Positions 12 to 34,833 of a DNA stretch of 58,739 nucleotides are shown here, piece after piece (position 1 is the first letter of the stretch; each line of letters begins with the position of its first letter). The notes under the pieces were generated by a model. That model ran no database searches. It saw only the letters and a program-made list of their open reading frames with translations, and was not told where the DNA came from. The translations under genes were made by a program, and so were the position numbers. This stretch comes from Moniliella sp. 'wahieum' (taxonomy: Eukaryota), in assembly GCA_003971905.1 (NCBI GenBank), contig RSEE01000172.1, positions 1 to 58,739 on the forward strand. The letters are read 5' to 3'.

Positions 12-3000
12 GGTCGGAAACTGTTCCAGCAACGCCACTAGCCATTGGGTCTGGTGCCGTGCACACCCTGCAATCCATGCCTAGTATACCGGAGCCGCCG
101 CCGCACCATTGTGGCAGGAGACCCGCGCCGCCTGCGCCAGCGGCTGTGCGCACCGCCACGGCCGTCATAGTGCACAAGTGTCAGATCCTATGTTAATAGA
201 CACTGCAGCAGTAATGAGAGCGCATCTCCCTTCCAGCCCCCTCTGCCACATGGAAAGTTAGAGCCAAGTGCCCCTTCGGGACCGCGAACGCGACGAGAGA
301 CTAGCAATGCTCACTCCCCGTCGCCATGCATTAACAGCGCCCATGATGCCTAGCTAGTTCGCGAGCATCGCGGTCCCCACCCGGATGACCAGAGTGCGCT
401 CTTGACGAACGGACCGATGGAGACGAAACCTAGTACTCAATGAGTGTGGTGGTGGTGTGGTGAGGATGAGAGCGAGGGCGGTATTCGACAGGGCCAGACT
501 CGAGCAGCACCGTGGCCTGAGCAAAAGGCGGTGGAGGGCGATGTGGTTTGGGGCGACACAGCAAAGCTCGCCAGGCTGGCCGAGTGGATCGCGGTGGCGC
601 CCACGGATGGGCGCTGCACGAAGCACCCAGCACCACACCCTCTGGAAAGACCAGCCGCCATCATTACTCAGCGCTTAGCGAAGTCGAGCGAAATAGAGAG
701 AAAACGTTCGGGGGACGAGACATGGTGAGAACATCATGCTCATGCGTGAGAAAAGAGAGAGCGAAATGGCGCGTGCGTGGCTTGGGTATTAGCGCTAACT
801 AGTAACTTAGCGCTTAGCTGTGCCGTAGATCACGCGCACGCATCACTCACCACGTGGCATCAGAACCGTGGGGCACAGCCGCCATGCTCTTCTTGGATCG
901 ATGATCGGAGATTGATCGGAGATTGATCACCGGAGAACATAGAATCTGAGATGGACCTCACGTGTCACATGTCACATGTCACATCGGACATTTGTGAAAG
1001 GCTTCTTAGATCATCAATCAGCGATCATCAATCAGCGACCAGCGACCATGCATCTATCAGCGCACAAGCCACCACCATAGCCCACCCATCAAGGAAGCAC
1101 GTCCCCCTCAAAGTATATATGCCACCCGCATCCCTCGAGAGTGCGTTTTGGTGTGGCTTGTTGACGGCAGCGATGCGCGATTCGAGGAGTTGGTACGTGG
1201 AGGTTGGTGGTGCATGTCAGATCCGTTGATAGACCCCGCAGTACGCGTTGGTGCATGTGCTCTCATCAATCTCGCCCTGGCCCTCCCATCCGCTTCTCCT
1301 CTCTGCCATCCGCTTCGTCCATATTATTGGCTCATTACTTTTCATCCATCTCCACCTCCACCTCCGCATCCACCCCCCTGCCCCCATCTACCCACGCCAA
1401 CACTGATGCCAGGCACATATGCCCTATTTACTGACCCCTCATCGACCTCATCCGTCATCCGTCATGTTGTTAGTTTGACTCAAGTCATCTCCTCCGATTC
1501 GGTCTGACCTGTCGTCCCAAGTCAAGGTCCCTGGGCCGGTCTGTCTCCCCATATGCAGCCCTTCTTCAAGCAAATGGAAGACCAGATCTGTCTGGGCAGC
1601 ATCAGCTGATGGGGGATCAATCTGTTTTCTCGTTTTGTCTTTCACTACTGTCTGCCTTGGCCGTGCAATGGCGCGCTGCACTCCACCTTGTCTCACCTTG
1701 GCATCGCAGCAGTGCTAAGTCAAGTAATTTGAGCCCTTCGGTGCCTGTTATGTTGTCGCTCGCACTCTTTTTTCTCGCCTTGGCGTTGTGGGGTTTTCCT
1801 TCTTGTTTTAGTTGTGAATCCTCTTCTCCTTTACAATACGTCCAACAGTACAGCAAACGTCGTTTCGTCCTCCTCCTCTTGTCGCCGCATCACGTTGTAT
1901 TGAGTAGCGGAGTGTACTATTCAAGGCAAAAGGGGGTGGGTGTAGAATAACATTGTACCCGCGAGGGGTCATCCTACTTCTATGCAAAGTAGGGAAGAGA
2001 AGAAAGATAACTCGAACAAAAAAAAACAACAGTATAGATTGATCGTTCTATCCTGCGCCCATGCCGATGGGCTTGCAAATTAAGTTCCAGTGCGGCAGAT
2101 TGAGTGATTTGAAGTGGATCGGGATCAGCGTTACGAACCGTCAATGCTACATGGATACAGGACACGGTAACCATTTTCACCGCCAGCACCTGCTTCGCCC
2201 GTCCTTTGGGCCTCCACCACCTTCATTCAAGTTTCACCACTCTAGTATGGGGTTCGCACTGCGATTGGTGGTATCTTTACCGGCCCCACAGCCCCGATCG
2301 TCACCACGGGGCAGGGGCGTCGCTATGTCCAACGCATGTATCTTCATCAGCTCAGGTAGTATGCCGTGATGGTTCGTGGCTTCTCGAGATTATACACAAG
2401 ACAAGATGTGTGGGTTCAAGATTGCCTAGTAGTGCACGTTTGTGCCCAAGACAGTCAGCCTCGTTTCGGGCGTTGTGGGTGCTGCCTCTGCGTGCGATCT
2501 CGTTGTTAGCATCGGGATTTGTCCTGCGCTGCTCACAACAGTTCCCGATCCTTCGTTTATGCTGATGGAGCACGCGGGGGGGCACTGAGCCACACTCAAT
2601 CGGCCAGGGGCAGTGTACCTCGCAGCAAGAACGCGCCCCAGGGCATTTCTGCCTGGAGCCCCACTCAACACCATATGTCGAAGAGGTGGATGAGCCGCTG
2701 GCCCATTATACGTTCACACCGAAGAAGTTTTTGGGACCTACCACATGCCTGAGTGTGGTGGTAAGGGACTTGCATACGTTCGCTATGACCATATTAGTCT
2801 GGAGTGGGGCCCCGGCTCAAGTAGTAACAGAAAAGACACGAAGAAGGAGGATGTGATCTACGTCCCGGCATCCCCCCTTGCGTCCTCCCCCCTTCCTGCG
2901 TCACCACACGAACCACAAGTAGTTATACCGACCATCGACAGTGGCCCACTGTCAAGTATGTCTGTTGCCGTTACCCCAGAGTGTATTACCCCTGGCGTGG

Positions 3001-4139
3001 ATTCTTTGTCCCAGTAAAGAGGTTTGTAATGTATCCGACCACACTAGGTCCCATACTTATCGCTGCTGGTCCTACGTCCTTCTTTGATCCTGCAGGGATT
3101 CAGGGGCGTAAGAGAGACGATTGACGATTGACCTTCGTTATGTGTTTCCTCGGAGTCAGCGTTTCTTTGGTGATGTAGTACAATGTCTTATAAGGAGGGT
3201 TGAAATGTGGTCGGCCAAAATCCAGGTGATTGGGCTCGAGAGAGTGGGGGTTGGGCGGGACGTGGCGGTGAAGGAAGGGATAAATGAAGAGGCACAGAGA
3301 GTGGCTATATATCGTCGTCACCACAGCCCACACGTTCTACACCCTGATAGGTTGTTTACCTGTAGAGCTTAGTACTTTCTCCATCAATACTTAGGTCGGA
3401 CTTAGAGCCCATAGTGGCCTCGAAAGTGGAAGGGGGAGGGAGGATTCATCTCGCATATAGGTACAGAACGGACCGAGAGAGCTATGTGTCACACTGTTGG
3501 GGCCGGTTAGAGCTACTGCAAATGTGCCACTACCACGAGCGAGTCGCGCCGGAGAGGATCAACTGCCAGGCTAGCCCATGCTCCCCTCCGCGAGAGAGGG
3601 TACTACCCACTGAAGTTCGACCCAGTGTCTTTGCAAAGCCCTAAGGCCTAAGGCCTAAGGCCTAACGTCTGATGGGCGCCACCTTCACTTTTTCCCGCCT
3701 CTCAACATCACACGTGGGTGCCAGCGACGCTAATCTAGCAGCTGAGATGAGCCTAAGGACCAGCCGGAACCTGAAAGCAGTTGGGAAAAACAGCAGAACG
3801 GCCGCATCCATGCGACCATAGCGGTGCAAGCGCCCGCACCGACCGGACCGCACCTCTCTCAGCATAGACCGGGCAGATAGTCTTCATTGCACCTATATCC
3901 CTCTTACACTATGAGACGGGCGAGAGAGGAGAGGCTGCGCAGCCAGATTCGAGAAGTAGCTTCCACTTGACACAGCGGATGGCGTCGAACCAAGTGAGGC
4001 ACCTTCCACCGGCACCGACCCCATGCCTGATGAGGCCTGCCCCTTTTCCCATGTCACCCTGTCCTACACCCCCCCTTGCTGCGGACCAGTTGATCCAACC
4101 TCACCCACAGCCTGCAGAGCCCGAAGAAGAGAAGCCCGT

Positions 4140-4631: not shown

Positions 4632-4674
4632 TGGGGGTAAATGCAGTATATTTGAGTTGGGGCCAATCCAGAGC

Positions 4675-12003: not shown

Positions 12004-13304
12004 TAAGGCTTGAAGGCGCTTAACCACAGGTATTTTGTGGTGCAGATTCGCGCTGCCTCGAGCGCTTACTTCGGAAGTGATCTAGATACTAGTAGTGCTC
12101 ATCGACATCACACACAATGTGGGAACAAAAGGAAAATCTTCAAGCACGTTTGCGGCCAAGTCAAAAATACGATTTTAATTGGGATCGCGGATTCGCAGGC
12201 CGTGTTGTACCGCGATTTGGGAAAGGGCTTGTTTTTGTACAGTAGCGATGGAAGTGTCACGGGCTGCGGCGGACACGAGATGGTCCGACCGAAGCTAAGG
12301 CCCGCCTGCTCCGCACATGCCCAGTAGAGCGTGCTCCGCACATGCCCAGTAGAGCGTGCTCCGCAGGCCAACCAAGTGTGGTGATGGTTGGCTAAATTAA
12401 GTATCGTGGCCGAAGGGCCATGCTCCGTGCGGCAATAGTCGCCCCCGCCCAAGTCCAAGTCGGCCGGCCTAAATAAGGCCACCGAGCTTCCAGTGCCGTG
12501 GCGGCGTCTGCCGCCCCGCCGTTTCCGTTCCTTTCTCGGTCGCGCCTGTGGCGACCAACCCCGCTTTTGACATGTTCCTTTCTACACCCCCTCTTGTATC
12601 CGTTCCCTTTTGATCTGCCTGTACCCCTGGTTGATGGGGATCCTTTCCCCCACCTTCCATTCTCGTCCCCACTCTCGTCTCCACTCTCGTCATCCTCTCG
12701 TCATCCTCTTGTCATCCTCTCGTCCTTTCCCGCCTATCCTGTCCGACCCCTGCCCGTTTTCCAGCCAATTGATCCAGTACAGGCAGCTCCTCTTGTTAGC
12801 GTCCGACATCTCCTCCGACCTCGTCCTCCAGCCCTTCGTCAGTCCAGTCGCGCGAGCCCTCCTTTGGTCACGTCGATTCCCAGTCTCAGTTGAGGCAGTG
12901 TTTGTCCGCCGCTGTCTCTCCTCCCGTCCCTAAGTCCCGGAGGCTTCAGACACGTTACTACGTCCCAAGCCGGTGCAGACGCAGCCTTGCTACACGTGCA
13001 GCCGCCCACCAAAGGCCTCTCCTCGTCCCTAGCTCCGCTCGGACACACCAACCAGCCTAAGCCCGAAACTACCGTGAGTCGACCTACCGTCGCCTAAGGG
13101 ATTGTACCCCAAAAACCCCAGGGCGGGCCCCCTGGCGGCGCCCGCACGTGACAGGAAGCGGGCTGTGGGCGACGACTCATTCTAAGGTTTGTAAGTGCAC
13201 AGATGTGGTGAGAGTAGGAAAGCAGAACCGAAACGAAAAAGGAAGAAAGTTTTACAGACCATGAACAAAAACCCCACACTCTTTGTTCTGCTCTTCTCTC
13301 TTAA

Positions 13305-14820: not shown

Positions 14821-16899
14821 AATGTGTTCGCCGCCGCCGTGCTTGCTCCCGATCGGTCAACATAAGTGGTAATAAGATTATCGTTGGCCTCGTTGACCGC
14901 CCGTGCGTATTAGGGCGCAATACACGAGTAAAATGGGCTGCCGCATCCTCCCATTCCAGAGAGGCAGATTCATGAGCATGTCGAAGTGATAAACGTGATG
15001 GTTCAGGAACCATGTTGTCAGAGTGTATATCAGGGGCATGCAACTCAAAAGAAAAAAAAGGGCAGAAGAGGAAGCGATGCTGAAGGAAAGCGAGAGAAAG
15101 AGATGGTAGTGTGGTGTGCACTCTGACAAGACTCTTAAGCTAACTGGTAGGTATAGAAGGGAGAGTGACGGAGACAGTAACAGAGTGGGTACGTGGGCTA
15201 GCTATGTGACGTCACCGAATGACTAAGCTCGCTTCTGCATCCTGTGTCTCTCGCTTTCCCTTCCCTTTTGCTTCTGTTCTCTGCCTGATCTTTCTGTTTC
15301 CTCCCACGAACGATCTTGCCTTCCCCCCTCCTGACAGGACCTTGGTCTCCCTCGTTTAGCCCGACTGTTACAGTGACATGCGGTGTAATCAGAGTGACCA
15401 CGCTGACAGGCGAGAGCCTCAAACCCTGGGAAAGGGACATGTAGGATAACCTCCTCCCATTTCCAAATATTCGGTCCGGGAGCGTCTCGCTTCTTCTCTA
15501 TTCTTCCGCTTGGCGCCATGTCCTTGCTCTTGCTTCCTCCTCAGGAACGATTGCTACATCCCTTGCCATAGTCTCGGCTCTGGTCTCCCTCTCCTTAGGC
15601 CTTATAGCCGACTGTGATAGTTCCCGTTCCTGGCTGAGTGTAGCAATCTTTTCATTCTTGATCTGTGCTCCTTTCTACTGGACCCATGATCTCGATTCCT
15701 TTCCCCGTTTCTTCGTTGTGTTGTCTATATCCCTTGGAGGTCCTGCATGTATCACCCTCGATCCATGTTACATTCCCCTTAGCGTGTCATTTCGTCTTAT
15801 CATCCGTCTACTTCTTCTTGTTCGTCCACATTTCGTCTCTTTCTCTCGTCTTCGGTCGTTGTACAACACGCATTGCTTATCCATCGTTGACCCGCCATAA
15901 GGCAACTACCGTGTTACCTAGTTCACCACAGGTGACCCTTCCAATCTGCTGCTAGCGACCCTTCTTAGTCTTTACATCCTTTCGAGCAGGCATCCATTTC
16001 CGTCGATCGCCAACTATCAGTCTTCTGCCCTGACTTGCCTTCAGCTGCATCAAGCTTCCGACCAACCCATCAGAACCACGGATTACAGGTATACGTGTCC
16101 GGCTCCTTGCGGTGCATACGCAAACTTATCACGCAAGCGGACGCCCCAAGTCAGAGGCCTCGCCTCGTATCTAGCACCGTTTGGATCTGCTAGCAATGTT
16201 CTGGATCGATCCAATGTGTGAGTCTTGAGTGGCCTGTGCTCTTCTCCAAATGAAAGCATCCTTAAGTCATGGGTCGGGCTTCAGTACGGCGCCCGCCCAC
16301 ACGGCTGCGGACTTCGTATAAAAATTTCCATGTTCTGCGTCGTAGGGTTAAAGCGGGGGTTGTTTTTCGATGGGGCATATATAAACGTTGCTCATAGTTT
16401 TCCCGTGATCGGCGCCGCAGCGTAGCATTAATCTTTTTCCCGTTATAATGCTCTTGCAAATATCCCAACAAGCTGCGAAAGCACATACCAAAAGGGCAGA
16501 AGGCGAACAAGACAGCAGACATCTCCAACACTATTGTTATAGGTTGCATGCTAGCTATTAATAGTATATCAACGCCACTGACTTTTAGTGCTCGGCTATA
16601 TACTCTTCTATAGATTGTCTTCGTCGCTGTTGGTGTGGTTCATATGCTTGCTTCGCGTTGATGCAGCATTCCTATTCAAACTCTTCATCTTCGCTGGCAG
16701 GGTCCAAAACAGATGCGTGGGACGGACGACTGGTCCGCGCAATGGGCCTACGCCGCCTCGCGCCTCCCGGCGGTATGCTGAAGGGGCATCACCCCAAGCA
16801 GCCCGGCGGCGTTGAGCAATCACTTGCGCCAGTGTTTCGGCATCGCGCTGCTCTGTGCTCGGTTGTCCCAGGCGCAAATTGAGGTTGCTGTGGCCCTTG

Positions 16900-19240
16900 G
16901 AGGGGTTTTCAATGCGTACTCCACCAGCACATGCTTGAGATGCGCAACATGCCAAATAGAAGGCGTGGTGATTGTGATCGCCTCCAGCGTCCCCCCTGCG
17001 CCAATATCATGAATCGCCTAGAAATGGCCGTTTGGATCAATCTTGCACTTGCTCGAGCAGCAGTGCTGTAGCCCTACAAGGTTGCCAATCCGCTTTATCC
17101 GGGTCCAAAATGATCAGCCATGAGTGTTGCAACACAATACAAACACGTGGATATAGGGATGGTAAACGTACACTGGCCAAGGCGAATCGTTCAGCATGGC
17201 GGGGCAATTCTTCCACGATGCGGCAATCGGATTCAGGCTGAACACGCCCAGTTACAAGCATTGGCTTATAGACAATCCAGACCGAATCCAGGGGACCGTG
17301 CACCTTGTCAGTTGCAACGCCAATGGATTGAACCTCACCAATCGTAAACGGAGCTTGATTCCCGGATGGCTGGTCGGGACCTTCCATACGAATGGTTACC
17401 CGGTGACCTTCACTTACCACTCCCCGGTTTGGGCGACCACATTCTTGGCTTGGGTGAAATGGGGGTAAGTGAGCGACCTTTGCCTGATCATCTGCGGGAA
17501 TCGGGCACCTCGGTTGGGTCAGGCGAGGAAGAAAGTACCGATTCAAACCAAGATTTGGTTGATGTCGATAGCTTTTGAAGGTAACATATCCTTTCAGGCC
17601 ACGCATGCGCAGTGTTAGCCTCTAGCAACCATTGCATCACAAAAAGCGTTTGGCGGAGGGGGGGCGTACCGGGCGTTCTTTTGGCCCTGATATCAGCAAG
17701 CATTGAGCCATCAGATTCGCCGCACCGGGGGGGCGAGGCAACTGCAACTTCCTGTTCCCTTCCATTGAGGTAAGGTGAAACCAGGAGTCGCGTAGTATTG
17801 CTTTTACCTCTTTGCGCCAAAGCACGTGGATAATGTCGCGGCTGGGGTTATGTCCATTTTACGTGTTGCAGCCGCACGTGCAGGCCCTACTTGCGTCTCG
17901 AACCGGGCAGTATCAGCATTGAAAACTGGGCCGTAGTACCGAATGCAGGCCCGCACATGAGCAAAGAGAATGTGGAACTTGTGCTTCCGTTCCAAGAGTG
18001 TCTCTTCCCCGGGGATCAGCGACAATTTGCCGCGAGGTCAAACAGAGCTTGTTGAACAGAATCCTGCATGGAGAGAAAAATTAATTAGCTTCTTCTTTCA
18101 AAGATAAAGAGAAGTTGCGGGGGACTCACAAGGTAGTGCGACATTTCTGCGCGGTCGAACCACCGTTGTCGGAGCAACTGCTGTGCCTTCGCGGCGGATA
18201 CGAAGGCGGCGTGAAGGGGTCGGGGGGAAAACGAACTCGTACGCGACCTTCCGGGTAGGATCCTGCTTACTCTACCGACATCTTCAAGAGGTTCAAGCAT
18301 CGGGATCGCCGCATACGTGACTGCAACGAGCATCTTGGAAAAGTCATTGCCCTGGCAAGTTGCCAGGTTCTTCATCAACAGCTTGGCTTGGAGTGTCTTG
18401 CCGTCCACATTGGGTAACCCGGAAGTGTCAAGAGCGTAAAGAAACAAGGTTAGTTGATCTTTCGCCTTTGGCTGCAACTGTTGCGAAAGCATGCGGAGTA
18501 ACTCCTTGCCCGGACCAGGACATTTCGTCCAGTCCCTTTTTCGGTGTGCTCGTTTCTACAGACAGGCTGTCTTCTAAGAAAATTCAGCCAACGAGAGCCC
18601 TTCAAGGTAGCGCTGTTCGTTCTAGAATCTGCAAGGCTGCCTTCGGTAACATAAAGCCCTCAGGCCTCAGCAGCCCTCGGCGCCCTCAGCACCACTGTGG
18701 AGAAAAACATGCAGTCTAATTAAAGCTTTTTATTATCACGATGGCATCTATATACATTTTGGGCCTCCTAGTGTTGTTGCCACATCCACCGAGTAAGCGT
18801 CCAACATACCATACTCACATACATATGTGTGGCTGTCAACGAGCCGTACAAGGTGTCTGCACACACTCGATATTGTGAATGGTAACATTTCGGTAACGAT
18901 ATGTCCGGGACCGTTTATGAACTGCGCTTTGAATTCAGTTACGACTTTTGCGACGGTCTTAATTGTTTCCCAATAGTGCTCGCATAGCTGGATTGGTCCT
19001 TCGTTCCGCCGACGTGTACCCTTCCTTTTTTGACCAGTATTGCAAATAAGAGGCACATAATGATCAAGCTGATCCAGCAATAAGCTAGGCGGGCACTTTT
19101 GACTTCAGTATAGTTGGGACCCGTGGTCCGTACTATAGGCCAAGGCGCTCATCACCCTTCAAGCCACCCTGATTTGTCCTCCGAAGCATCCACGTGGTAT
19201 ACTCAGGCTTGTTTGAACCCTTGTCTCCTCTAGGTGTGGC
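16900..19240 (+). mobile_element. Highly degenerate LINE-like (APE/RT) remnant
   Basis: In the expected order: a C..C...G..DC knuckle (about 16940), HLVSCNANGLN..RKR..I..WL (APE N-terminal motif, about 17300), SLPGP(D)G (about 18505) and RGI.Q.C..PLSPL (about 19195-19232). No open frame remains. Confidence 0.4.
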
Positions 19241-19699: not shown

Positions 19700-21957
19700 A
19701 AGCTTCATCCTTTGTGCACGCACTCTGATCCAGCGACCGTGTGCACCGCGTTGGAAAAGAAGACGGCAATGCAAAATAGTATGTTAAGGCAACCAAGAGA
19801 AGGTAAGAATCCACTGGCACTAAAGTGGATCAGCAACAACAGTGATCATGGCCCATTGCCTCAGTTTCTGACCAGCAACAGACGCAAAAAGCGTTGGCCG
19901 GTGGAGGTAGACGGTATACCCTTTCAGAGTGCGGATGTGTGCGAGTGCTTTCCGGTAATCCCTGTGGTTCGTTCATTCCTAATTCGCCGCAGTTCCAGCA
20001 AACAGAGCTGCGCGTACCGATGCCCCCCGTATAGATTGATGGTCGGTGGAATGGGTCAGCGCAGATGGGGAATAGGTATTACCAGCAGATCACATTCAAG
20101 TAACCTTGCCATGCAAGACACCACTGATGGAGCATCGTTCTTGGTGGCACAGGAGTGGGCGCAATGCCTTTTCTTGAGAGTGGTATAGAAGGCGAGACTG
20201 GTAAAACAGAAAACGGTTCGCGATGTGCAGGGAAGGTGACGGGTGTGCTTAAACGATGGTGGACCTGGAGAAAGAAGGGTGGTCGCGAGAGTAAGCGACA
20301 TCAGTCTGGAAGAGGTAGAACCTTCAATCTCTGGATGGGGTGGGGAAGGGGGAGGGGAAAGGGAAAGGGAGGAGGGAGGAGACTGCAGCTATTAAGCAAA
20401 GCTGAGTGGAGTGAGGAAACATATGGTATGCGATTTGGATTATATGCATGAGGTGCGAGTGTGAAAAGACCAAGACATATGGAAGTCAGGAAAGGTTGAA
20501 TGGATAGATGGAAACAGGATCAGGAGGAGGCCATGCCGGTTCTGGTCGCCAAAAGTCTCGCATTGGCTCTTCAGTTGGGAGATGAGGGCCCAGGAGAGGC
20601 ACAGTGAGAGGTGGGGTCACCGCACCTCCATTCAGGGAAGGCCAAAGGGCAGGCTTTAGGGATTCATTGCCCCCGCACGAAGTGGTGGGGTATTAGAGAA
20701 AAAGAGCGATGCCGGGGGATCGGTGCAGCTTGAGGCAGTGGTCGGTGAATCGAGAGATGGAACCCCTCCCAAAGGGACGGATAAGGGAAAGACGAAAGAT
20801 GGGTCTGGAACAAAGGCTGCAAGAGCAGAGAAGAAATGCCTGGGTCGGAGGCCAAAGGCGCCTCGGGTGGAGAGGTGAAAATTGAGTCCTCTTGCTCCTC
20901 ATCAGGCAAGGCCTGCACCAGCCCTGACCCGCACAGGGCTTGTGAAGAGGGACGGGCATATGCCGTGCCGGTAATGTTCGGGAGGGAAAGACGATGTTTG
21001 AGAGACAGGCTGATATCATTCCATTCGAAGCCAAAGGGCTGGTGCGGGTTTCTTGCGGGTAGCTCCTCGCCTACCGTGACGGGGAGGGGCCCAAGAGCGG
21101 CATGTGTACTTTTGCTTGAGCCTGGGGACCTCGCAGTGCTGCCACTGGAGAAGAGGGGTGGCTTGTGGGGGATCAGGGTGGGGTACTGCGGCGGGGTGAA
21201 GGTGAGGCTGAGTGGTGTGGTCTGGCCCGAGTCGGCGGGGAGCAGAGTTTGGAGTGAGACTAGGCGCGACCGAGGGGAGACCAAGGAGATGCGTGAAGGC
21301 TGGGCTGCAGTCGTCGTCGTACAACTTTGTGTTGGCAGGACCAGGGGAGTCGAGCCATTTCTCCTTTACCCCACTCGACGCACCCGTGGCAAGGCCCGAG
21401 TGCAGTGGGGAGTGCGGAGGGGAAGGGGAATGCCCAAGGGCGTGGAAGACAACGTTGAATCGAGCTCGAAGCTGTAGGGGCAGGGCGCTGGGGGCAGGGA
21501 ATGCCGGCCCTGGGAGCGGATGCGTTGGCGGTCGTAGGTGCAAGGCTTGTAGGGCTGGGACACCTTACACCTCTCGCACGGCCGGCCTCCGTCGCAGCGG
21601 ACCTTGGCGCGGGCGCAGGCGTCGCAGGCCTGGGAGATGCGGAGCAGGGCAGAGCGCTCGCGGGTTGACATGGTGCGCAGGTTCAGGTGCCGTCTCTTTT
21701 CCTGGTCGACATGCATGCGGAGATGACGCTCGAGGACATCCTTGCGGCCAAACCGCTTGGAGCAGACGCTGCAGCCAAACGGAAGGGGGGAGCGTGCACA
21801 GCCTGGTGACGGGCCAGGTAATCGGGGCGCTGGAAGACCTGTGGCAGGTGGGGCAGACGGGGGTGGACGCGTGCCGGCGGCGCGGCGGAGCGGCGCCTAG
21901 CACCCGCACGCCGTGGGTGCTGGCGGCGGGGGTGGCGGCGGTGGGGACGGGGGACAT
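19700..21957 (-). pseudogene. Fungal transcription factor with 2x C2H2 plus Zn(2)Cys6 binuclear cluster, frameshifted and decayed at the C-terminus
   Basis: CPTCHRSF-QRPDYLARHQAVH, RFGRKDVLERHLRMH, SQACDACARAKVRCDGGRPCERC...PCTY. A YLHRPT motif typical of the fungal-TF middle domain lies at about 19890-19912. The 3' end is uncertain. Confidence 0.75.
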
Positions 21958-24437
21958 GGGGGGGCGGCGGCGGCGGCGGGCGGGGGGCGAGGGTGGGCAG
22001 GTGGGGCGAAGGGGTCGGACGCTTTAATATACGGGCAGGAGGTGATTGGGAAAGCGAGGGATGCACGGGGGCAAGAGTGCTGGCGTGTGCCAGGGCCAAG
22101 CAGGCGGCCGGAGGCACCCTACAGAGTGCGTGCAGGCCGACGCATTCTGAGATCTGAGATCTGCCGCGCTGGCGTCTGATCTGAGACCGAGTGCCATCCG
22201 TCCCCTGGGGGGGGCACTGTCGGAAATGCACCGGCTGCCGAAACGACACTGCGGCGACTGGCGAAGAATGCGAACGCACCCTGCGACGCCGAGTTAGAGG
22301 CTGGAAGATTGTTATTGAGCGGGAGCGCTGGGCCTGGGCAGCATTGCCCTTCCGGACGGACACACGTTTGCTCGGTACTATGTACTCGACGTACCCCACT
22401 GAGTACTACTGAGTACTGATTCAGTACCAGCCTGAGGACAATACGTCTGGGCATTCACATGCTCACATGTTCACACTAGCAAAAGCGCTTGGGTGCCATC
22501 GATGATCAACGTTCAACGTTCAACGTTCTACCTTCGACGTTCAGCTAGTCCCTATTCAACGTACCATGTACCAACGTACTCTACGTTAACTCCTGCCTTC
22601 ATTTTAGTCACTAGTCACTAGTCACTCCCACCATCCGAACGAGACGGCAGATGGACAGCCGTCACGCGTCACGGACACTGGCACCGCAGAAGGCAATTAC
22701 GGGGTACCGATTATCCGGTAATACATCCCAGTACCTCTATTACCTGTGTCAGGGTTGGATCCAGTACACAAAACATGTGTGAGTACACACGGTACGATGA
22801 GTAGGCTGCACCACTGTCACAGTGCAATGAGTACTGATTGATACTGAGGCCTGAGGAGGTCAGTCCGATGATTTGAAAAGTTGATACATACGGGAGCTGC
22901 GGATCAGGCTGTGTTCTGAGAGGGTTACGTCGTCTTCAGTGAGGCGTGGCTACAATAGCCACTTCCTAGTATTCGTACTAAAAAAAGTCGGAGTGATCAG
23001 TGACTTGACGAGTGATTCTCATGGGCACCAAACAGGGACAGCTGGGAATACGGATGGCGATGGAATTCGTATCTAGGGCGCGTGCCTTGCAGTGCCCGTC
23101 CTCTTTCAAGCCCCAGCACATTGGATGCATCACGCGTCACGAATGCCCCCCTCTTTTTCTGCCCCTGACTAAGTGGTGACTAGTGAGTGTGATTAGTGAC
23201 TGTCTTCAATGAGTGACTCGACTGGTTCATGACCAGGGCACTCAAGCGCCCAAGCGATCAGCGCTGCTCAGACCTCCCGCGAGTGACGAGCTGCTCCCTA
23301 GTCACTTGCACTTGCTTAGCGGCTCAGTGCTCAGCGGGGGCGCAGCATGTCTTAGATTTTAAGATCCTTCAAGGTCTCCAAGCTTCAGATCTATCTCAGA
23401 TCTCAGGCCTGAACCTCAGGCCTCAGGCCCCTCATTCCTCAGGATAGCTGCCGAGAAAACAGGCCACATAGGTTGGTGAAGCCGGAGCCCAAAGCGTCGA
23501 ATTGTGGCTTGAGGAGCTTGAGGGACTGCGGTAGGGACCGCGCGTCAGGTGCCGGGGACGCCCGACACGCGACAGGTTTCTCTGAAAGAGGTGATCGAGG
23601 TGATCGGTGATCTCCGATCATCGATCATCGATCATCGATCAAAGTTCAACGATTATTATTTCGTATTGAATCATCGATCAAATGTTTGTGTGCATTCCAT
23701 TGACAGAGCTTAAGGCTGGGACAGGGGGAACGCTACGTCTAAACCGAACCGTTCATCTTGCGGGGGTTACTTGGAGGCGCCACCAAGATTATATATGGGG
23801 CCGATGGAGGAAAGAAAAACAGGTGTTATATTCTCCGGTCTTTGCCTTACCGGTTCCCAGTTCCGGCTATATCGTAGTGTTCAGTTGAACGTGCAACGGA
23901 CGTTGACGTGAACGTAGGTTGAACGATGGAGCTATGAAGCTTGAAGGTTGAACGTTGAACGTTGATCGATGATCGTTGACGCGTTGCCGGAAGTGTCGGA
24001 TATCTACGTAAGCGCTAAGCCTCTTAGATCATAGATCTTACTTCTTCCTCTGAGATCTGATATCTGACATTGATCTTTGACAATATTGACACGTTGACAA
24101 TATTGACATGATGCATGATGCATGATAGAAGCCTGAGGCCTGAGGCGGCTCGGCGGCACGTCACCTTCATGCGTGAGCGCGTGAGCATAGCCTGGTTAGA
24201 CGTTAGGTGGCTGGCGGAACACACCAAGCGCGCCACGCGAGGAAGAAGGGAGAGAAGGGGAGAGGCAAGAGGCAAGAGGCAGGGAAGAACATTGAAAATT
24301 TGAGTGACGGGAACCCAGCTACTTATACCAAGCTTGTTGGTCGGCTCGGCACGGCGGCGCGCTGCTGGTCGAAGAGGAGGTTTGGGAGCGGCCTCTACTG
24401 GCTAAGAGTGATGGCAGCGAGAATGACTTGCCCGATG

Positions 24438-24582
24438 TTTAGACTGTGATCCCAGCTGCTCTTATCCCGGCTCGATAGCGTAGTGGTAACGCATCCCTGG
24501 CCCATAGGCGATGACATGGTTCGAATCCCATTCGAGTCTCCTTCTTTTCCTCACTATTTCCCCCGGGCTGTGCCTTCTCACA
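24438..24582 (+). mobile_element. Solo LTR (about 145 bp) containing a tRNA-like sequence (24469-24538), TSD CGATG
   Basis: T(G)TTAGACTGTGATCC...CTCACA flanked by CGATG at 24433-24437 and 24583-24587. Internal A box TAGCGTAGTGG and B box GGTTCGAATCC. Confidence 0.75.
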
Positions 24583-27199
24583 CGATGGGCTGGAGGCAAA
24601 CAGTAAACGTTAAACGGGGTGTGAATGCAAAAAAAGCCCCGAAACGGATACTGGTGACGCGCGGGACGTATCGTAATCCCCAGGCGGCCTCAGCGCCTCA
24701 GCAGGCCTCATCGGCTTATCGATCAAAAAATGATTAACTGACCATGTGATAACCTCGTGGTGGTACATGCTTGTCTATCGTTGTACCTTATGCATTACAC
24801 CACATGCATTTTTGGTGTGGAGCAAAGGCGACATGTCCGATTTCAGAAGCTCAGGCCTCCAACGAGAAGGGCTCGCATGCACTCACAGAGCGACAGTACG
24901 ATCAGTAGCATGTTTAACATTTAACGTTAACCACGTTTACGTTCCCGGCCGAAGTAAGTAATTGCGCACAGGCGTGTTGTGATCGTGATCTTTCACTGGT
25001 TGTGTTTTGGCAATCGTTTCTCAATGGCGTGCCTGTCCTACGCAGGGCGTCTATAGCTGCCGAGGCCTACGGGAGAGAAAGGAAGAATGAAGGGTCGTTG
25101 TCGCGGGGTTCTCATGTGCAGGCGACAGGCTGCAGTGTCAACGGGACAACACGCACCAGACGATGCATGAAGCTGTAAGCTTTAAGCTTCAATCCCAACA
25201 AGCGTCAAGCTTCAAGCCTTCTGGCGCAGCAGGGCGCAGCCAAGCCCTGCTGAGCCCCACAACCCCACCATAACGCGTAACGTGCCCTTCCTGTGGTCCG
25301 AACAGGGTGGGTGAGTGATCCAGGTGCACGTGACACGTGACGCATGATAATCGGTGATTCGATGATATGCAGGATGCTTTAGCACCAGCGGTGACCGGTG
25401 ACAGGGAACATGGGAAGGCGGGAGAGATCCCAGCGTGGGAGACAGACCCTTGCCTGGCAGTCCGCAGCAAAGCGCAGGCTATAGGCACCCGGGCTCCCCC
25501 GCCGGAGCAGGGCCGAGCGCAGCAAGGCGCAGCCTGCAGGGCACAAGCACCCAATCTATTTGTGTACAGGTGTACATACATCAACACATACACCATGGGC
25601 TGCACTCGTACGATTCGCCATAGGTACGAACGTGTGCTATTAATGAGTAGTTTTAACGTTTTTGGCTTTTGGCATTTAATATTTACGTTGTTAATAACGT
25701 TAATACGTTAATGCCATGCACATTCACGCAGTACGCCAGTGTGTGCCTGCGACTCGGAGAACCAAAGTCTCAGTATGTCTGACCGGTGCACCCCGTCCGA
25801 ACGCACACTGCCCGTCCGCCCAAGGGGGGATGCTGTTGGCTAAATTGGTTGTCTCACACCTCGGAGCAGACGCAGGAAGACGTTTTCGTGGCGCGGGAGG
25901 GAGAGGGTTACCGGTTACCGGTTATGCAGTACGTTGCACATGGATGATCGATTGGTACCAGCAATGCATGATGGATGTCGATGATTAATGATTAATGACT
26001 ATCGATTATCGATTAGTAGCTTGAAGCTGGAAGGGGAGCCGAAAGGGCACAGAACGTATGACATGTGACATGCATGACATGTGACATGTGACGTGCGACA
26101 TGCGACATGTGACATGGGACCGGGTGACCTGCTACCTGTCATGCCCTTGGCACTGACGCGTGACGCGTGACTGTCCATGGGCGCGTAGACTACAGGCGTC
26201 CAAAGTGTCCGAGTGCCTACAGTGCATAAGCACCAAGCGCCAAGCCCATCGTAAGAGTTAGAACCAGCATTTTTTCCCCAATCCTATGGGCTTCACGCGC
26301 GACGTGCGGTTTCCCCCGCATTGTAGGTTCTGACGCGTGACGACTGGAAAGAGCCAACAGCGCAGCTGTGGCGCTGAAACAGGAGTTGAGGCCCTTTCGA
26401 CTTTACTCGCACGCTCATCGAAATCAGCATTCATGGCGCTCATATGTGCTCAGCGCTCATATGTGCTCAGCGCTCATAGCGCTCATCCATAGTGTTTCTC
26501 TGGCCTCCGGCCTTTCAGCAGGCTCATCGTCTCATGCATACTTGTGTATATACTCTGTGGATACTATGATGCTTGCATGACAGTGTTGCCAAGCTGTCAG
26601 GAGGGTGTCTGGAGGAATAGGGGAACATGCTCTGTTGAACGTTGAACGTTGAACGTTGAACGTCGATGCATGATACTCACGAAGTCTTGCTTCCCAAAGG
26701 TACTATGAACCACGCGCACAAGAGAGTTAAAAAAAGGGCCCGACGTGTGGTATAGCACGGTTACGTTTAACCTCTTCCGCTTGAAGCTTCTTCGCCAGAT
26801 TGGCCCGATACTATCACCTCTTTCTTACTGAAAGAGGATAATGTAGGAGAAGTAAACAGGAAGGAGAAGCACACCAATGCCAAGCCGGTCGGACTCCATT
26901 ACTTCCCCTGCGAAAGTTACCACCTTTTTTAACGAATGATGGCTTGAGGAAATTACCGTGAGGGAAGCTCGCAGTCAGTCTCCTCTATATCGAGTCTTAT
27001 TTTCTCAATCAGCATACCTTTTCGAGATACTTCCATGCATGGCTTGGCGGTTTTTGATCCCTCTTTTCCAAAAGTTCTCTGCCTCGCTCCTCACTGAGAG
27101 ACTTACTCTGTTTTCCGTCTCTCTCCATGTCCTCTCTGCTCTAGTAGCTTCTCCTTCACGCAGGATTGCTCCACCCTCCACACTCGGGTCTCGACTCTG

Positions 27200-28964: not shown

Positions 28965-30325
28965 TGTGACGTGGGTGTCATCGCTTGCCTAGGCTGGTGC
29001 TATGTTGGCTCAGGGGTAAATAATTAGGCCAGTTCATACCATCATAGCCCGCGCTGCGCGCGCGCCCGCCTTTCCCGTCCTCCTTCTCTGCAATTGGTGT
29101 CCTGTTTCTCCACCCCAGCTCCGCTTTTCGCTTCACTGGCAACCTCGTCCCCGCTCACTGTGACCGATAGACTGGCCACCTCTTCTGTTGACTGCTCATC
29201 GGAGAGTGCCTGTTCCATGGCACAACAGGCTTTACGGGTGAAAACGTCCCTCTTTCGCTCCCCCCCCGCTCCCTCCGCTTTCTCCTTATCATGTCTTCCG
29301 CCTCCGTCAGGCTCCAGCGGGGGCCGGAGCAGTTCTCTGTCGTGATCTTACAGTAGCGCTGGTCCCGAACGCTCTCGCTGTCTCCTCCCCATCAACTGGA
29401 CCACGCTCGTCACCCAACTGATGGGCCACTTCGCAGCCATTGAACTCCCTCCTGACACCTCTTGGAAATCCTACTGGATCGTGCCCGGGTTCTCGGGTGC
29501 AATGCACCCGTTCCCACCGACCGGACTTCCCCCGCTAGGCGCCTGGATACGGAGAACTTGACCTGGATGTGGCTGAAGGGTTTCAAGCGGCTAATGCGGA
29601 CAGACCCTCAGTTGATTGAGACGTGGGCGCAAGCGGTTGACAAGGAAGGCGTCTCTCCGACCACCATTCACCTTACGGTCTGGGAGCACCATCTCATCCT
29701 TGGCACGGACCTTTGGGCGGCTATCGAACACCCAGAAGGTACCTGGTCGACGCTGCGGATAACGACGATCCTGCACCGGACCAACATCCTATAGCTGAGT
29801 CTCCTTGGAGGCAAAAACGAGTTTTTGGCTGACTTATGTGCATGGGATATGACTCTTCCCTATAGCGGAGGACGCTAAGGACTAGCCTTCGTCGCGCCTC
29901 TCATCTGGACAAGCAGTTCTCACACCCGGCCCTCCTCCTATTGCATCCCCTCTCGTCTTCACGTGGCGTTCCCTCTTCGTCCTCGAGGCTTTTCTAAACA
30001 AGCTTTCGCGGGGGGGCTGTGTTGGTGACGTGGGTGTGATAGCTTACCTATTAGTGGGCTGTGGCGCCATGGCTCAGGGGCACTAGGCCAGTTCATACCA
30101 TAGCTGGTGCCCCCTTTCCTGTCCTCTCCTTCTCCGTAATTGGCAGTGTTCTGTCCATCCACCATGCACCACCATCCGGCTCCTCGCTTCACTATAGTCA
30201 CTAATAGTCACTGGTAACCGGTAACCTCTTTCCCGCTCATGCCATGGCATATTTTGACTATAGCCCCCTCACCTGTAGACTGCTCGTCGGAGAGAGCCCT
30301 GTGATCCACGGCACGAAACGGCCCG
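28965..30325 (+). repeat. Diverged direct repeats of about 270-300 bp (28965-29231 and 30026-30323)
   Basis: Shared blocks gtgacgtgggtgt, ggctcagggg, taggccagttcataccat, tcgcttcact and gactgctc-tcggagag. Confidence 0.7.
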
Positions 30326-30951
30326 AATCGAGACAGCCTTTTCTCTCTGGAAGCTGGAGTAGTATTCTTCCAAATTCGAGAGGTGACAGGGAGGAAACCA
30401 ATGCTACAGTGGATTTGGCCTATTACCCCGCCGAACACGAGTTGGTCACCATCTCGTTAGTCGTCGCCGTCGCCGGCGGTCCCGCCTTCATGTTTCCCAC
30501 AGAGGGTTTAACGTACCCCAGTACTTCGAGCACCTCAGACGGTTCCCCTATGCTACCACTCTCTTTCCCCGGCGAAAAATTAGGGGCTACTCGCTCCTCG
30601 TCCATCCTACACTACCGACCCCTTTTGATAGTGTCCACGTCATCAATATCCATCGTGGCCTTGATATTGCTGATGTCAGAAACCTTATTTATTCTGACAT
30701 CCAGGATGTCAGCGCCATCTCGCCCCCCCCTTGCTATCCCTCGGGTCAAGGACGCGAGTGAGGTCAAATCTGTTATCGGCGATCACAACGACGTCAGTGC
30801 CATCAGTCTCCAAGCTTCAACGTTCAAAAGCAAAAGGCAATGGTCCCTGGATCTGCTCATGCAACCTCGATGGTGGCCGGTCAGAGGGCAGGCACACCTC
30901 GCATCGTTCTTTGGGCGAGGCGATGGCCCCGTGTTCCGCCGCTGTTCCGCC

Positions 30952-31095
30952 TGTTAGACTGTGATCCTGCAGCTGTTCTTATCCCGGCTCGATAGCGTAG
31001 TGGTAACGCATCCCTGGCCATAGGCGATGACATGGGTTCGAATCCATTCGAGCCTCTCTTTTCCTCACTGTTTCCCCGGGTTGTGCCCTCCCACA
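30952..31095 (+). mobile_element. Solo LTR (144 bp, TG...CA) containing a tRNA-like cloverleaf (30986-31054), TSD CCGCC
   Basis: CCGCC at 30947-30951 and 31096-31100. Acceptor stem GGCTCGA/TCGAGCC, D-arm GCGT/ACGC, B box GGTTCGAATCC, and TTTT just downstream. Confidence 0.85.
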
Positions 31096-31719
31096 CCGCC
31101 TCCTTGAATGTGTTTGCCGCGTATTCGCTGCTTCGCCACAGTTGACCAACGATGGGCCAGACATTTGTGCTCCATGCATCACACCACTACTTTTCTTTGC
31201 ATCTCGTCCAAGTAAGCGATCTATGGGCGACCGTGACGCGTGACGAGACCTGGAGTCCAGATGGTCCTCGAGGGTGATGCAATCGCACTGGTGGTGGTGG
31301 TCTATGCCAACCAGCAACGCCTACAGAGGAACATCAAGCAGTGAGTCGCCACCAGGGCTAAGCTGCGAACCAGGAAAAACAGGAGAGAAAGCAACGGAAC
31401 TCCCAGGCCTGAGGAGGAACTGAAGGGGCATTGGCCAAAGCACGAGCCACCTGATGGCTCAACAGACCGCTATGCGCCTCACTAGGAGACCACCGGGCCC
31501 ACTGTTGCCACGTGGCTGGCTAAGTCTTCTTCAGTTAGCTTACCTACTCAAAAGCTTTGTTTTCTTCTTGTAGCAACGCCTGTATTTGCCTTGCCTCCAC
31601 CTGTATCCCGCTCCCGCTTATATACTCGATACTCCTCTCTCTCTCCGCTGTATTCGCTGTCTGCATCGTAGAGACTGTTGTGTCTCGCTTACGTTCTGGC
31701 ATACTTGCGTCGCTACACC

Positions 31720-31870
31720 ACGGCCCGGTTTGCTGAGGCTTCGCCCCAGCCTGTTGGGCTGGGTCACCGTCGCCACCGTAGCCACCGTTCCCCCTAGAGA
31801 TACGCGCTGGCTGGGTTGACTGGAACGTGGCACACGTCAGCTGATGTAAAAGTGTACAGGGGCGTTCCCA
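31720..31870 (-). mobile_element. Diverged partial copy of the 4141-4631 Helitron-like element
   Basis: The reverse complement shares cacttttac, tgccacgttcc, gggggaacggtggcta-ggtggcgacg, gctggggcgaagcc-cagc and accgggccgt with 4160-4613. Confidence 0.7.
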
Positions 31871-31951
31871 TTTCCCATTTTTTCACCGGCCTCACGTAGT
31901 TCGAAGAGTACTAGAGTACTGGTAGAGCTAGTGACTAGTGACTAGCGGGTA

Positions 31952-32061
31952 GTGAAGCTTGAAGCTTGAAGAGTGTGAAGCGAAGCTTGAAGAGCTAGTG
32001 AAGCGAAGCTTGAAGAGCTAGTGAAGCGAAGCTTGAAGAGCTAGTGAGGCGAAGCTTGAAG
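31952..32061 (+). repeat. Minisatellite, 23-bp unit gtgaagcgaagcttgaagagcta x about 4
   Basis: Read directly from the sequence. Confidence 0.9.
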
Positions 32062-32429
32062 GATTATCGATTGGCATGAGATCCGAGATCGCAGTAGGTG
32101 ATCAGTCGATGGCGCCGCAAGCAGCAGGGCTGTACTGGTGCTGAGTGTAAGGTGAATCCCACGGCATCACAATATGGTGGGCGTGAGTAAAAAGGTCCAT
32201 CGATCATCGGCCTGAGCAAAGGAGCAACTCAAATAACGCAGGTGGCCCAGACCGCGTACCGGAAGGTGTTGGTACATGAGAGCACTGTGACGCCTTTAAA
32301 GCTCTGACAATGATAGGGATGCAGTATAGAGATAACTCCACTCTCTCCCTCTCAGTGGCATGGTTCGGCGTAATCGGTAATTTGATGTCCTCGACAAAAG
32401 TGCAGCACGGTGCTGTGCCACCATAATCG

Positions 32430-33350
32430 CCAAATGGCGCCCCACAAGTATGGTAAAGGCGTAGCGCAAAAGCGCGAAACCTTCTTGGTCATTCCTTCCA
32501 ATATTCCTTCTTAGGGGGCAGGAGTATTCTTTACTCTGTATTTTTGACTCTGATACGAGGCGCTGCGGTGTCTCCGATGCAGGGCCCCTCATGTCATAGG
32601 CATCTCTTATGAGCGGTCCTCAGTCTCTACATAGGCTAGCGAGAGAGCTTATCTATCCATGCAGCTGGCATCCTTCGCAGCCCGCTCAATATATGGGCGC
32701 ATGGGTACGATGCTTTGTTCCCATTGCGCCCCACATCGGCAGAACCCTTTGTCTGCGGCCCCCAACGGACGCGGACTGACAGAACAGACTGCGCTTTATG
32801 CCTTACTATTGTAGCTCTCTCTGCTGGCTATGTAGAGGACTGAGTACTGACGTATTGGAAGAGATGCCTACGAAATGCGGGCTCTGCGTCAGGAAGAGAT
32901 ACCGCAGTACCGTAACATCTCTGTGACATGCGCTCATGTGCAAAATGCAATACACCGTCAACTGACTGCTCTCTGGTCTTCACATCATTCCTCAGCCCAC
33001 CGGACACGGTGCCGTGCGCTAGTATGTCCGTCGAAGCGGAGGGTGTGCACTACACAGTGCAAACACTTGCGCTATCTATATCTAACAGTTGGAGCACGGT
33101 TCCATGTGGCGTATACTAGGCCAAGTGCCAGTCGCCAAGTGGATGGCGCCACAGTAGGTAAAGGCGCAGGCTAAGGGACCTTCCTTATCATTCCTTCCAA
33201 ACTTCCTGGAGGGCAGGAGTATATTCTCTAGCCTCACTGTAGCTCTCATGTGCAAATGTTGTAGTACTAGTATCAGTTATTAAGGGCGAGGCTAGCTCTT
33301 ATTCATCCCACCCCTGAACGCTTTCGGACCCCGCAAGTCTCTCGATATGG
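32430..33350 (+). repeat. Diverged local duplication (about 32432-32540 versus 33141-33235, with further weaker blocks)
   Basis: Shared atggcgcc, ggtaaaggcg, tcattccttccaa and gggcaggagtat. Confidence 0.65.
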
Positions 33351-34833
33351 CTCCCATCAGACCCGATGTGGATATTTTGATGACAGCCTGGCCTAGCGAG
33401 GCAACCAGACTGCATCCAGGACCAACAGGACGACATCCGCGCACCCTCGGCCATACGTTTGTTCACCCCAAGCCGACTTCCAAGCCGGGGTCAGCCGCTT
33501 GTTGGAGAGCATGACGTGCCCGACACCCCATGTGGAGGGCCATGATCCGACTCCAAGATCAGGTCGCAGACGTCCGCGAAGCCCTAAGTGGAGTAAAAAC
33601 GAAATGCAACATGAACTCCATGAAGCCCAAAATGGAAAGTTCTTCATGAGATCATGACACGGACGGCCACGTCGCGCAGGCCACTACGAGCCAGGATGAA
33701 GACGCAGAAAAGCGGACTCGAGATGCTGTTGGCCAAGTCCGCCCTATATCTGTATGCCTCCATTTTTCATCTTCAGATGATTAATTTTAAGGCTGACCAC
33801 AGCATCTTTTCCGTTTAACCGCATTTTGGTTTTGCAGCGCAAGTACATTAAACAGCTAGTCATGTGTTGCATGAAGGCGCCTTGGGAAGCGTCTCATCTA
33901 GAAGGCTCCTGTGCGGTATGTATCTATCTTGGATCGCTCGAGACCGAGCTTTCTCTGTGACAAAAATGGTTTGGTTGAGCAGGAATGGGCCAAACTCACG
34001 TTGCCGAACCCAGGCCTCCTGGCACCGTTATCGATGTTGCAACTGTGATGATAAAGGGTGCCTAGGCAAAAGAGTATGGGCAAGAATAACGCGAGCCATA
34101 GCGGTCATCCGCTATGAGATCCTAACTAATGTGCGTATCTTCATTTGGTTCCTTTCCCCTTCACGGTACGTTCTGAACGCTTCTGCCCGAATCCACTTGC
34201 AGGTGGAGACGCACCACTGAGAGTAAGTAAGGCACCGTGGGCCCACATCGGATGCTTTCAGTGTCGCCTCATTTCAAAAGAAGGTTGTCAAACATAACCT
34301 GGGAGACTATGGCCGCAACCTCAACCGCGTGGAGGGCAGCAAGCTTGCGATGCGCATTCGCATCCTCCTTTATTTCTGCCTCGATTTGCTGAATATACGA
34401 CCAGGTGGAGAAGCTGTCGAACGGACTTTGAAACCAGCTGGGGCATTTCGCTGGATGCCATCCCTGACTCTGATGCAACGGTACCCGCTGAGGCAGCGGC
34501 TGTGATGCTAACCTTTCGAACACATGTGGCGACCGGGCCCGATATGCAATACCAATCTATCCAAATACCACAGATCTCCTTTTTTTGGTTTAATTATAGG
34601 ATTAGCCATTATTATTGGATAGTCCCCCATTGGCAAGAAACGTGTACGCAACAGGAGCAGTCATAGTCCTCGATGTCGACAGTGTCATCGGGAGACATTG
34701 ATGTCGGGGTACCCGGGGACATCTATGCCATCGTTGGAGACCTATTACCCCTATGGTATCACCCACGTCAATGACACCCCCGACGTCTAAGCCCCCTCCG
34801 ACGTCTAAGACACTCACGACGTCTAAGGCACTG

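Follow-up and report, generated by a model that had tools for sequence, protein, structure and literature searches.

TNA-palindrome arrays with a seven-base period in Moniliella sp. 'wahieum', candidate stacked repair scars of a cut-and-paste transposon

The window analyzed here is an entire contig of 58,739 nucleotides (RSEE01000172.1; C172 of assembly G000, which comprises 69.5 Mb in 223 contigs) from Moniliella sp. 'wahieum'. Its genes are of fungal type with few introns, and because the closest named match of its uS7/S5 protein is from Tilletiaria anomala, at 90%, the host is probably a smut-related basidiomycete. The subject of this work is the non-coding span from 22140 to 26670, upstream of a gene for a C2H2 and Zn2Cys6 transcription factor, which carries short arrays in which the trinucleotide TNA alternates with a 4-bp palindrome. 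The window region has a second copy on contig C125, at 80-96% identity, and contigs C1 and C25 are likewise paired; judged by these pairings, the assembly contains two diverged haplotypes, so that alleles can be compared. Across 272.5 kb aligned between the haplotypes there are 1,761 one-base indels, and because the assembly is this rich in them, allele differences of one or two bases were given no weight.

The motif counted, always on assembled sequence, was the 10-mer made of a TNA, a 4-bp palindrome, and the same TNA again. The span contains 48 of these, in 35 arrays of one to three units, whereas 100 shuffles preserving 2-, 3-, or 4-mers gave means of 0.2, 0.5, and 1.0, with a maximum of 4; the whole window holds 68, compared with the 1.6-2.3 expected from 30 local shuffles. 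Control triplets in the window occur at expectation (ANT 2, CNG 7, and GNC 6). Among even spacers, strong palindromy is limited to a length of 4, with palindromic fractions of 68/123 at 4 bases, 8/28 at 2, 1/48 at 6, and 0/44 at 8. An earlier interpretation of the window from its letters alone (the sequence-only reading) had described the arrays as intergenic and abundant, had quoted 18 of them, and had claimed that at least 12 of the 16 possible palindromes are used. All 18 coordinates and units are present in the sequence, the arrays are enriched relative to both shuffles and other triplets, 14 of the 16 palindromes occur in the window and all 16 in a 389-kb sample, and gene regions are nearly free of arrays, with none in the zinc-finger gene and one in the gene-dense 15.7-kb right part. 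The C125 haplotype carries the same arrays, some of them one unit shorter or longer.

The arrays extend well beyond the window. Thirteen blind-chosen 10-kb pieces from contigs C1-C8 contained 0-33 of the 10-mers each, with at least 2 in 12 of the 13, and a non-random sample of one haplotype totaling 588,739 bp (the window, C1:110001-530000, and 11 further pieces) contained 443 arrays, comprising 353 single, 72 double, 14 triple, and 4 longer ones. Scaling from this non-random sample to ~35 Mb, we infer ~26,000 arrays per haplotype. In the 389-kb subset, 150 of the 283 perfect period-7 repeats obey the TNA-plus-palindrome rule, which excludes ordinary heptamer microsatellites, in which adjacent bases are copied directly without any rule; plain 7-bp duplications at TNA are not enriched (72, compared with 112 at ANT). 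It is clear from these counts that the motif is real, rule-bound, and genome-wide.

The source of the palindrome can be read from the flanks, writing a site as pq-TNA-rs with primes for complementary bases. In 278 of the 353 single-unit arrays, two palindrome bases recur in an outer flank. The match is confined to one side in 205, with the opening pair of the palindrome found again after the second TNA in 109 and its closing pair ahead of the first TNA in 96; both flanks match in 73 arrays and neither in the remaining 75. The typical form is therefore TNA-rs-s'r'-TNA-rs, or the mirror image, in which pq-TNA-rs has gained 7 bases. In empty alleles, the two flank-matching palindrome bases already belong to the host site. 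Had the palindrome come from element ends, random flanks would be expected, and the observed flanks are not random; given the flank matches and the empty alleles, the palindrome derives from the host flank and not from element ends. The sequence-only reading had proposed a target-site duplication (TSD), terminal bases, and a second TSD, with a 3-bp TNA duplication of the PIF/Harbinger or Tc1 type. Neither part survives, as the flank is what is copied and the duplicated unit is 7 bp. Only the T and the A are fixed among the 205 reconstructed sites, which comprise 83 TGA, 77 TCA, 23 TAA, and 22 TTA. The kept dinucleotides are uneven (observed vs expected: TC 49 vs 24, AA 2 vs 16, and TA 2 vs 11).

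Clean indels between the haplotypes, surveyed over the 272.5-kb alignment, peak at 7 bases, with 74 compared with 47 of six and 23 of eight bases, so that the exact +7-bp allele steps predicted by the sequence-only reading are indeed seen. The strict +7 rule explains 32 of the 74, with 19 at non-palindromic sites (12 right, 7 left) and 13 as array steps. Because an empty allele could equally be a contraction, direction was tested on multi-copy repeats: of four array-bearing repeat copies with at least three homologues each, two show a +7 gain relative to most paralogues. One is a solo long terminal repeat (LTR) at 15595, whose array is shared with its C125 orthologue and for which the direction of change is gain, since four paralogues keep the single site; the other is a Helitron-like copy. 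The remaining two comprise one possible smaller gain and the partner copy of the Helitron-like case.

Junctions were tabulated at non-palindromic sites on both strands of the 588,739 bp, with ANT, CNG, and GNC as controls (given in that order). The +7 joint r s s' r' occurs 302 times at TNA vs 4/10/11, the two +8 joints r s s' p q and r s s' r' q occur 42 times vs 3/9/11 and 45 times vs 2/6/1, with 30 sites in common, and the +9 joint r s s' r' p q occurs 26 times vs 1/2/5. There is no enrichment in this table of 5-bp, 9-bp, or plain 7-bp duplications, and odd-centred joints of the Ac/Ds type show no excess (24 vs 20, 31 vs 27, and 6 vs 4). Where intact pqTNArs repeats stand one base apart, that base is a palindromic (P) base, s' or p', in 35/35 cases (controls 3/11, 10/28, and 11/27); where they stand two bases apart, P bases are found in 42/67 (controls 2/11, 2/48, and 7/69), about a dozen of the non-P cases stemming from a single 9-mer array, and at three and four bases apart, they are found in 2/6 and 3/12. 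At +8 joints, pairing between the predicted overhangs at a one-base shift is enriched (0.51-0.71 vs 0.24-0.31 per column), and +7 joints show no enrichment for overhang pairing. The statistics establish a 7-bp duplication, a host-derived, even-centred palindrome, left/right symmetry, unit gain, and compound arrays. From them we infer hairpins, the position of their opening, and the route of repair, as the joints are those expected if perfect hairpins at each edge of the 7-bp duplication had opened to palindromic overhangs of 4 nt. Hairpin repair, the second option of the sequence-only reading, is supported, as is its proposal of an enzymatic, transposition-like origin.

Repeated events at a single site, also part of that proposal, are supported by the multi-unit arrays, of which 22 of 90 are compound, with the differing palindromes in register that a left and a right event at one site would give (e.g., 23949-23972). 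Single-unit slippage cannot yield such a combination. Since the second TNA is already flanked by s'r' and rs, a further event there would give identical overhangs and the same unit. Slippage probably drives the 14- and 21-base steps of existing arrays.

In all likelihood, these joints arose when 7 bp were duplicated by staggered cutting and hairpins were then opened and joined, and a cut-and-paste transposon is the probable cause of the stacked repair scars. Such a candidate element would insert at nn-TNA-nn, with TGA and TCA preferred, and would duplicate the seven bases pqTNArs. On excision, a perfect hairpin would seal each flank exactly where the duplication ends, and a host nuclease of the Artemis/Pso2 type would open the hairpins about two bases past the tip, leaving the 4-nt overhangs rs-s'r' and q'p'-pq. 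End joining that retained one overhang would give the net +7 product, TNA-rs-s'r'-TNA-rs or its mirror; alternatively, both overhangs might be ligated at their ends across a bubble of mismatches, which would segregate later, and shifted overhang alignments would give the +8 and +9 products. As the new TNA would lie in a perfect palindrome, the next cut there would produce compatible ends and the same unit again, while a cut at the old TNA could add a different palindrome and so form a compound array; slippage would also lengthen and shorten arrays.

Several observations weigh against this explanation. The strict rule leaves 38 of the 74 seven-base indels unexplained, with 4 in other classes, and several of the 19 apparently de novo cases lie at the edges of older arrays. 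Overhang pairing is not clearly seen at the +9 joints (0.35/0.19 vs 0.27), 2-bp TSDs flank 4/5 paired copies of the local CACTA family, and ~0.75 arrays per kb is a very high density for transposon scars. Incompatible 3' overhangs are joined poorly in vitro, with resection (PMC5114395), and Ac/Ds footprints are far more varied, with 28 types in 128 clones (PMC5873905). In ~1.1 Mb of both haplotypes, no element with terminal inverted repeats (TIRs) was found flanked by an nnTNAnn duplication; TIR/TSD screens returned only array pairs, LTR-type matches, and chance matches. Among the large haplotype-specific insertions listed, some are CACTA-ended or Helitron-like, some LTR-type with a 5-bp TSD, and some unclassified, and an nnTNAnn duplication accompanies none of them. 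Profile searches of the genome for KDZ, DDE_Tnp_4, hAT dimer, MULE, DUF6589, and RAG1 were blank and insensitive, the PF02992 (EnSpm) search having missed the window's own CACTA-ended element. For PF18758 (KDZ), neither the genome nor the control gave a match; PF05699 (hAT dimer) gave 0 matches with 2 candidates scored, DDE_Tnp_4 (PIF/Harbinger) 0 in an insensitive first pass, and PF12940 (RAG1-like) none in a weak search. A Pfam scan of 24 of the 115 long window frames and 11 CACTA-segment frames found no transposase over the cut-off.

The PF02992 search of the genome gave three loci (L120, L121, and L122), none with a 7-bp duplication; L120 and L121 are without TIRs, and L122 has ends without a flanking 7-bp repeat. 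L120:3181-5900 (G000:C17) and its counterpart L246 represent an EnSpm-like gene without TIRs that occupies corresponding positions in the two haplotypes and adjoins a gene that by eye resembles a Rad51 paralogue; no longer relatives were found, only distant ones at 25-40% identity. Its two main frames have a ratio of nonsynonymous to synonymous polymorphism (pN/pS) of 0.97-1.48, compared with 0.24-0.29 for neighboring frames, and given this neutral evolution, L120 was rejected as a domesticated enzyme. L121:2759-6372 (G000:C34) is an EnSpm-like gene with long frames and arrays on its flanks, for which a TIR and a second copy were not found. In the window itself, the segment at 30610-40577 has CACTACCGAC ends and a frameshifted EnSpm-like frame, judged by eye, with ~4-kb family copies elsewhere. 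A haplotype-specific truncated element at 16299-18515 begins with CACGG and has a transposase remnant 34-40% like L122; its empty allele is a CA-TGA-CA site, yet its junctions fit a 2-bp duplication.

The same chemistry could operate without a resident transposon if a host or domesticated enzyme, or abortive integration that is re-excised at once, cut nnTNAnn with a 7-nt stagger, followed by fill-in, hairpins, and rejoining. This alternative, which we think unlikely, fits all of the junction data and accounts for very many scars yet no element in 1.1 Mb; it is countered by the neutral evolution of the TIR-less gene at L120, and we know of no enzyme that performs such element-free cutting. Replication template switching, in which the polymerase, having copied TNA-rs, would take two bases from the opposite strand before resuming at TNA, is a good deal less plausible: it yields the main +7 product on paper without any element, and the arrays are quasi-palindromes, but it does not account for the T-N-A specificity, with ANT, CNG, and GNC at background, nor does it predict intact 7-bp duplications with one or two P bases or the +8 pairing bias. 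We give very little credence to selected bZIP/bHLH-like binding sites with TGA/TCA half-sites, amplified by slippage in long promoters. The arrays lie between genes and are dense upstream of a gene for a transcription factor, and slippage surely acts on existing arrays, as the 14- and 21-bp steps attest; however, all 16 palindromes are in use, gains occurred within LTR and Helitron-like copies, slippage cannot invert two flank bases, and the 10-mers are identical between haplotypes less often than nearby 10-mers (132/289 vs 926/1694). The literal model of the sequence-only reading, with two terminal bases per Tc1- or PIF-like element end, could appeal to TNA as a PIF/IS5-like target and to the 75 arrays without a flank match, but as the main source it is refuted by the flank matches in the other 278; it would also require 16 different termini, and the duplication is 7 bp. 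Excision of the PIF type is, in addition, usually precise (PMC4561436). A long-read or amplification artefact, for which the indel-rich assembly would speak, is very improbable, as the arrays lie at the same places in both haplotypes, avoid genes, obey the flank-templated rule, and have similar units on an unrelated metagenome contig.

The scars attributed here to transposon excision can be set beside those of known systems. RAG and Transib hairpins lose no base, being made at an exact nick, and open two bases past the tip; the even-centred palindromes of one or two P bases at the duplication edge (the 35/35 and 302 vs 4/10/11 above) are alike in this and are consistent with 4-nt overhangs. 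The TSD of Transib is 5 bp, however, and 5-bp joints are not enriched here, the weak search gave no RAG1-like match, and the scars are germline and genome-wide. Flank hairpins and P nucleotides are known from hAT elements, Transib, MULEs, and RAG (PMC5499845, PMC5873905), and Artemis, which opens hairpins at coding ends, leaves 3' overhangs of 4 nt on substrates with overhangs (PMC4914130). Ac/Ds, a hAT system studied in plants, S. cerevisiae, and C. albicans, shares flank-copied P nucleotides, end joining, and microhomology at some joints, and Pso2 acts on Ds hairpins in yeast; its palindromes have as their center the complement of the element-adjacent base, which makes them odd-centred, and are varied (PMC5873905), whereas here the center lies between two bases, 7 bp are duplicated, and a single product predominates. 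Tc1/mariner and PIF/Harbinger also make a short duplication at a T..A target, but mariner leaves element-end bases and PIF usually excises precisely (PMC4561436), whereas the scars here carry inverted host flank and a 7-bp duplication.

Among fungal elements, hAT7 (Puccinia) and Kyakuja (Laccaria) match in having 7-bp TSDs in basidiomycetes, and the CMCT clade groups EnSpm, which has relatives among the genes of this genome, with Transib (PMC12730594). The accessible descriptions of hAT7, Kyakuja, and EnSpm, however, give no TNA target or footprints, the hAT and KDZ profiles were blank here, and EnSpm/Plavaka TSDs are 2-3 bp (PMC12730594), as in the local CACTA family (2 bp). By the features tested, the scars work like RAG/Transib coding-end repair, yet they fall outside the RAG/Transib, hAT, and PIF footprints. 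In Ustilago maydis, '10-bp repeats' have been suggested as transposon footprints (PMC4081816, citing Laurie et al. 2012); compared by description only, they too are short intergenic sequences, repeated at dispersed sites in a smut fungus and interpreted as footprints. Our literature search, whose coverage largely excluded subscription journals, found no description of the TNA-palindrome grammar. A bolder proposal, which we regard as possible but rather doubtful, is that a fungal element related to the EnSpm-Transib clade, or some enzyme descended from such an element, acts at 7-bp nnTNAnn sites with perfect hairpins of the RAG type, has produced tens of thousands of cut-and-rejoin events in this genome, with re-excision nearly always following insertion, and is shared with other fungi.

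Coordinates of the arrays, joints, empty sites, and adjoining gene in the window (all positions are those of the window)
Feature	Coordinates	Strand	Remarks
TAA-CTAG + TTA-GCGC (789-816), TCA-CATG x2 (965)	789..981		outside span
TAA-GGCC x3	3642..3665		two units (14 bp) longer than C125
TTA-GGCC-TTA gained within solo LTR	15595..15604		four paralogous LTRs have single CC-TTA-GC site
C2H2 + Zn2Cys6 transcription-factor gene, 5' part	21366..22023	-	array-rich span upstream of gene
TGA-GATC-TGA array	22148..22157		
TGA-GTAC-TGA, left-flank type	22410..22419		within decayed GTAC cluster
TCA-ACGT x2	22506..22522		one unit (7 bp) longer than C125 allele
TCA-CTAG x2 (22608-22624), TCA-CGCG (22662-22671)	22608..22671
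TGA-GTAC (22828), TGA-GGCC (22845)	22828..22854
TCA-CGCG (23130), TGA-CTAG (23177)	23130..23186		TCA-CGCG of right-flank type
TCA-GATC then TCA-GGCC	23396..23425		left- and right-type units round single TC-TCA-GG site
+9 joint	23508..23523		intact 7-bp duplication CTTGAGG, two P bases between
+9 joint (23590), TCA-TCGA x3 (23618-23641), TCA-TCGA (23671)	23590..23680
TGA-AGCT (23935), TGA-ACGT x2 + TGA-TCGA (23949-23972)	23935..23972		second array compound
TAA-GCGC (24009), TGA-GATC (24051), TGA-TGCA x2 (24109), TGA-GGCC (24134)	24009..24143		array at 24134 one unit longer than in C125
+8 joint	24172..24186		intact 7-bp duplication CGTGAGC, one P base between
TAA-ACGT (24604), +8 joint (24688), TTA-TGCA (24788)	24604..24797
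Empty non-palindromic site AA-TGA-AG	25086..25092		C125 allele is +7 left-type scar TGA-TTAA-TGA
TCA-AGCT (25205), TAA-CGCG (25271), TGA-CCGG (25392)	25205..25401
TTA-ATAT (25676), +9 joint (25690), +8 joint (25698)	25676..25712
TTA-CCGG x2 (25908), TGA-TTAA x2 (25982), TTA-TCGA (26006)	25908..26015
TGA-CATG cluster (26059-26120), TGA-CGCG x2 (26154)	26059..26170		cluster of 8.6 decayed units by Tandem Repeats Finder
TGA-CGCG (26331), TCA-GCGC (26450, 26467)	26331..26476
TGA-ACGT x3	26636..26659
Empty site GC-TCA-TG	30235..30241		C125 allele has TCA-GCGC-TCA
TGA-CTAG + TGA-AGCT x2	31932..31969		within CACTA-ended segment

The window also holds other repeats. A 144-bp TG..CA solo LTR at 24439-24582 and 30954-31096, with a 5-bp TSD and absent from C125, has many copies at 90-97% and contains tRNA-like sequence (Rfam tRNA matches at 24469 and 30986), which fits Helenus-type miniature retrotransposons with terminal repeats (TRIMs; PMC10886601). 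A TRIM-like two-LTR element at 9001-10392 and a 0.9-kb solo LTR at 12255-13153 are both haplotype-specific, and on C125, a solo LTR with a 5-bp TSD adjoins the array at 26636. The insertion at 4141-4632, between A and T, has a 3' hairpin and three 98-bp tandem copies and is Helitron-like by its ends. A very abundant truncated repeat, found in tandem on several other contigs, contributes a 106-bp piece at 23686-23791 that C125 lacks. At 26346/26347, C125 (L013:4488-5998) has an extra 1.5 kb of array-rich intergenic DNA, probably the result of a deletion in the window. Divergent intronless genes for ribosomal proteins S28 and S5, followed by casein kinase I, occupy 4377-5960.

A metagenome scan with one array pattern, a weak test, gave 123 loci, 111 of them without any other palindrome type and one, L124, with six. 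L124, an unrelated eukaryote-like contig with no long frames and 44% GC, carries four kinds of TNA-type 10-mer, nine in total, compared with 4 of the ANT-type control, which hints at a similar grammar outside this genome. The arrays of L124 lie at 1200-1380, 3160-3190, and 4470-4495. Because the grammar lends itself to counting in any fungal genome, the footprint suggestion for U. maydis is directly testable. If the arrays are scars of excision, a kind of lesion that is usually rare and varied would here be a main, countable mutational class, visible as the 7-bp peak of haplotype indels, and the scars would build intergenic DNA and seed hairpin-prone repeats. From the joints one could read how long the target of the candidate element is, the geometry of its hairpins, where they open, and which repair is chosen, and chemistry like that of V(D)J coding ends would be indicated in a basidiomycete. 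Should the doubtful attribution to an EnSpm-Transib-clade enzyme also prove true, a good part of the intergenic DNA of this fungus would be a tape of past events, and tandem repeats would have a transposase-driven route of origin.

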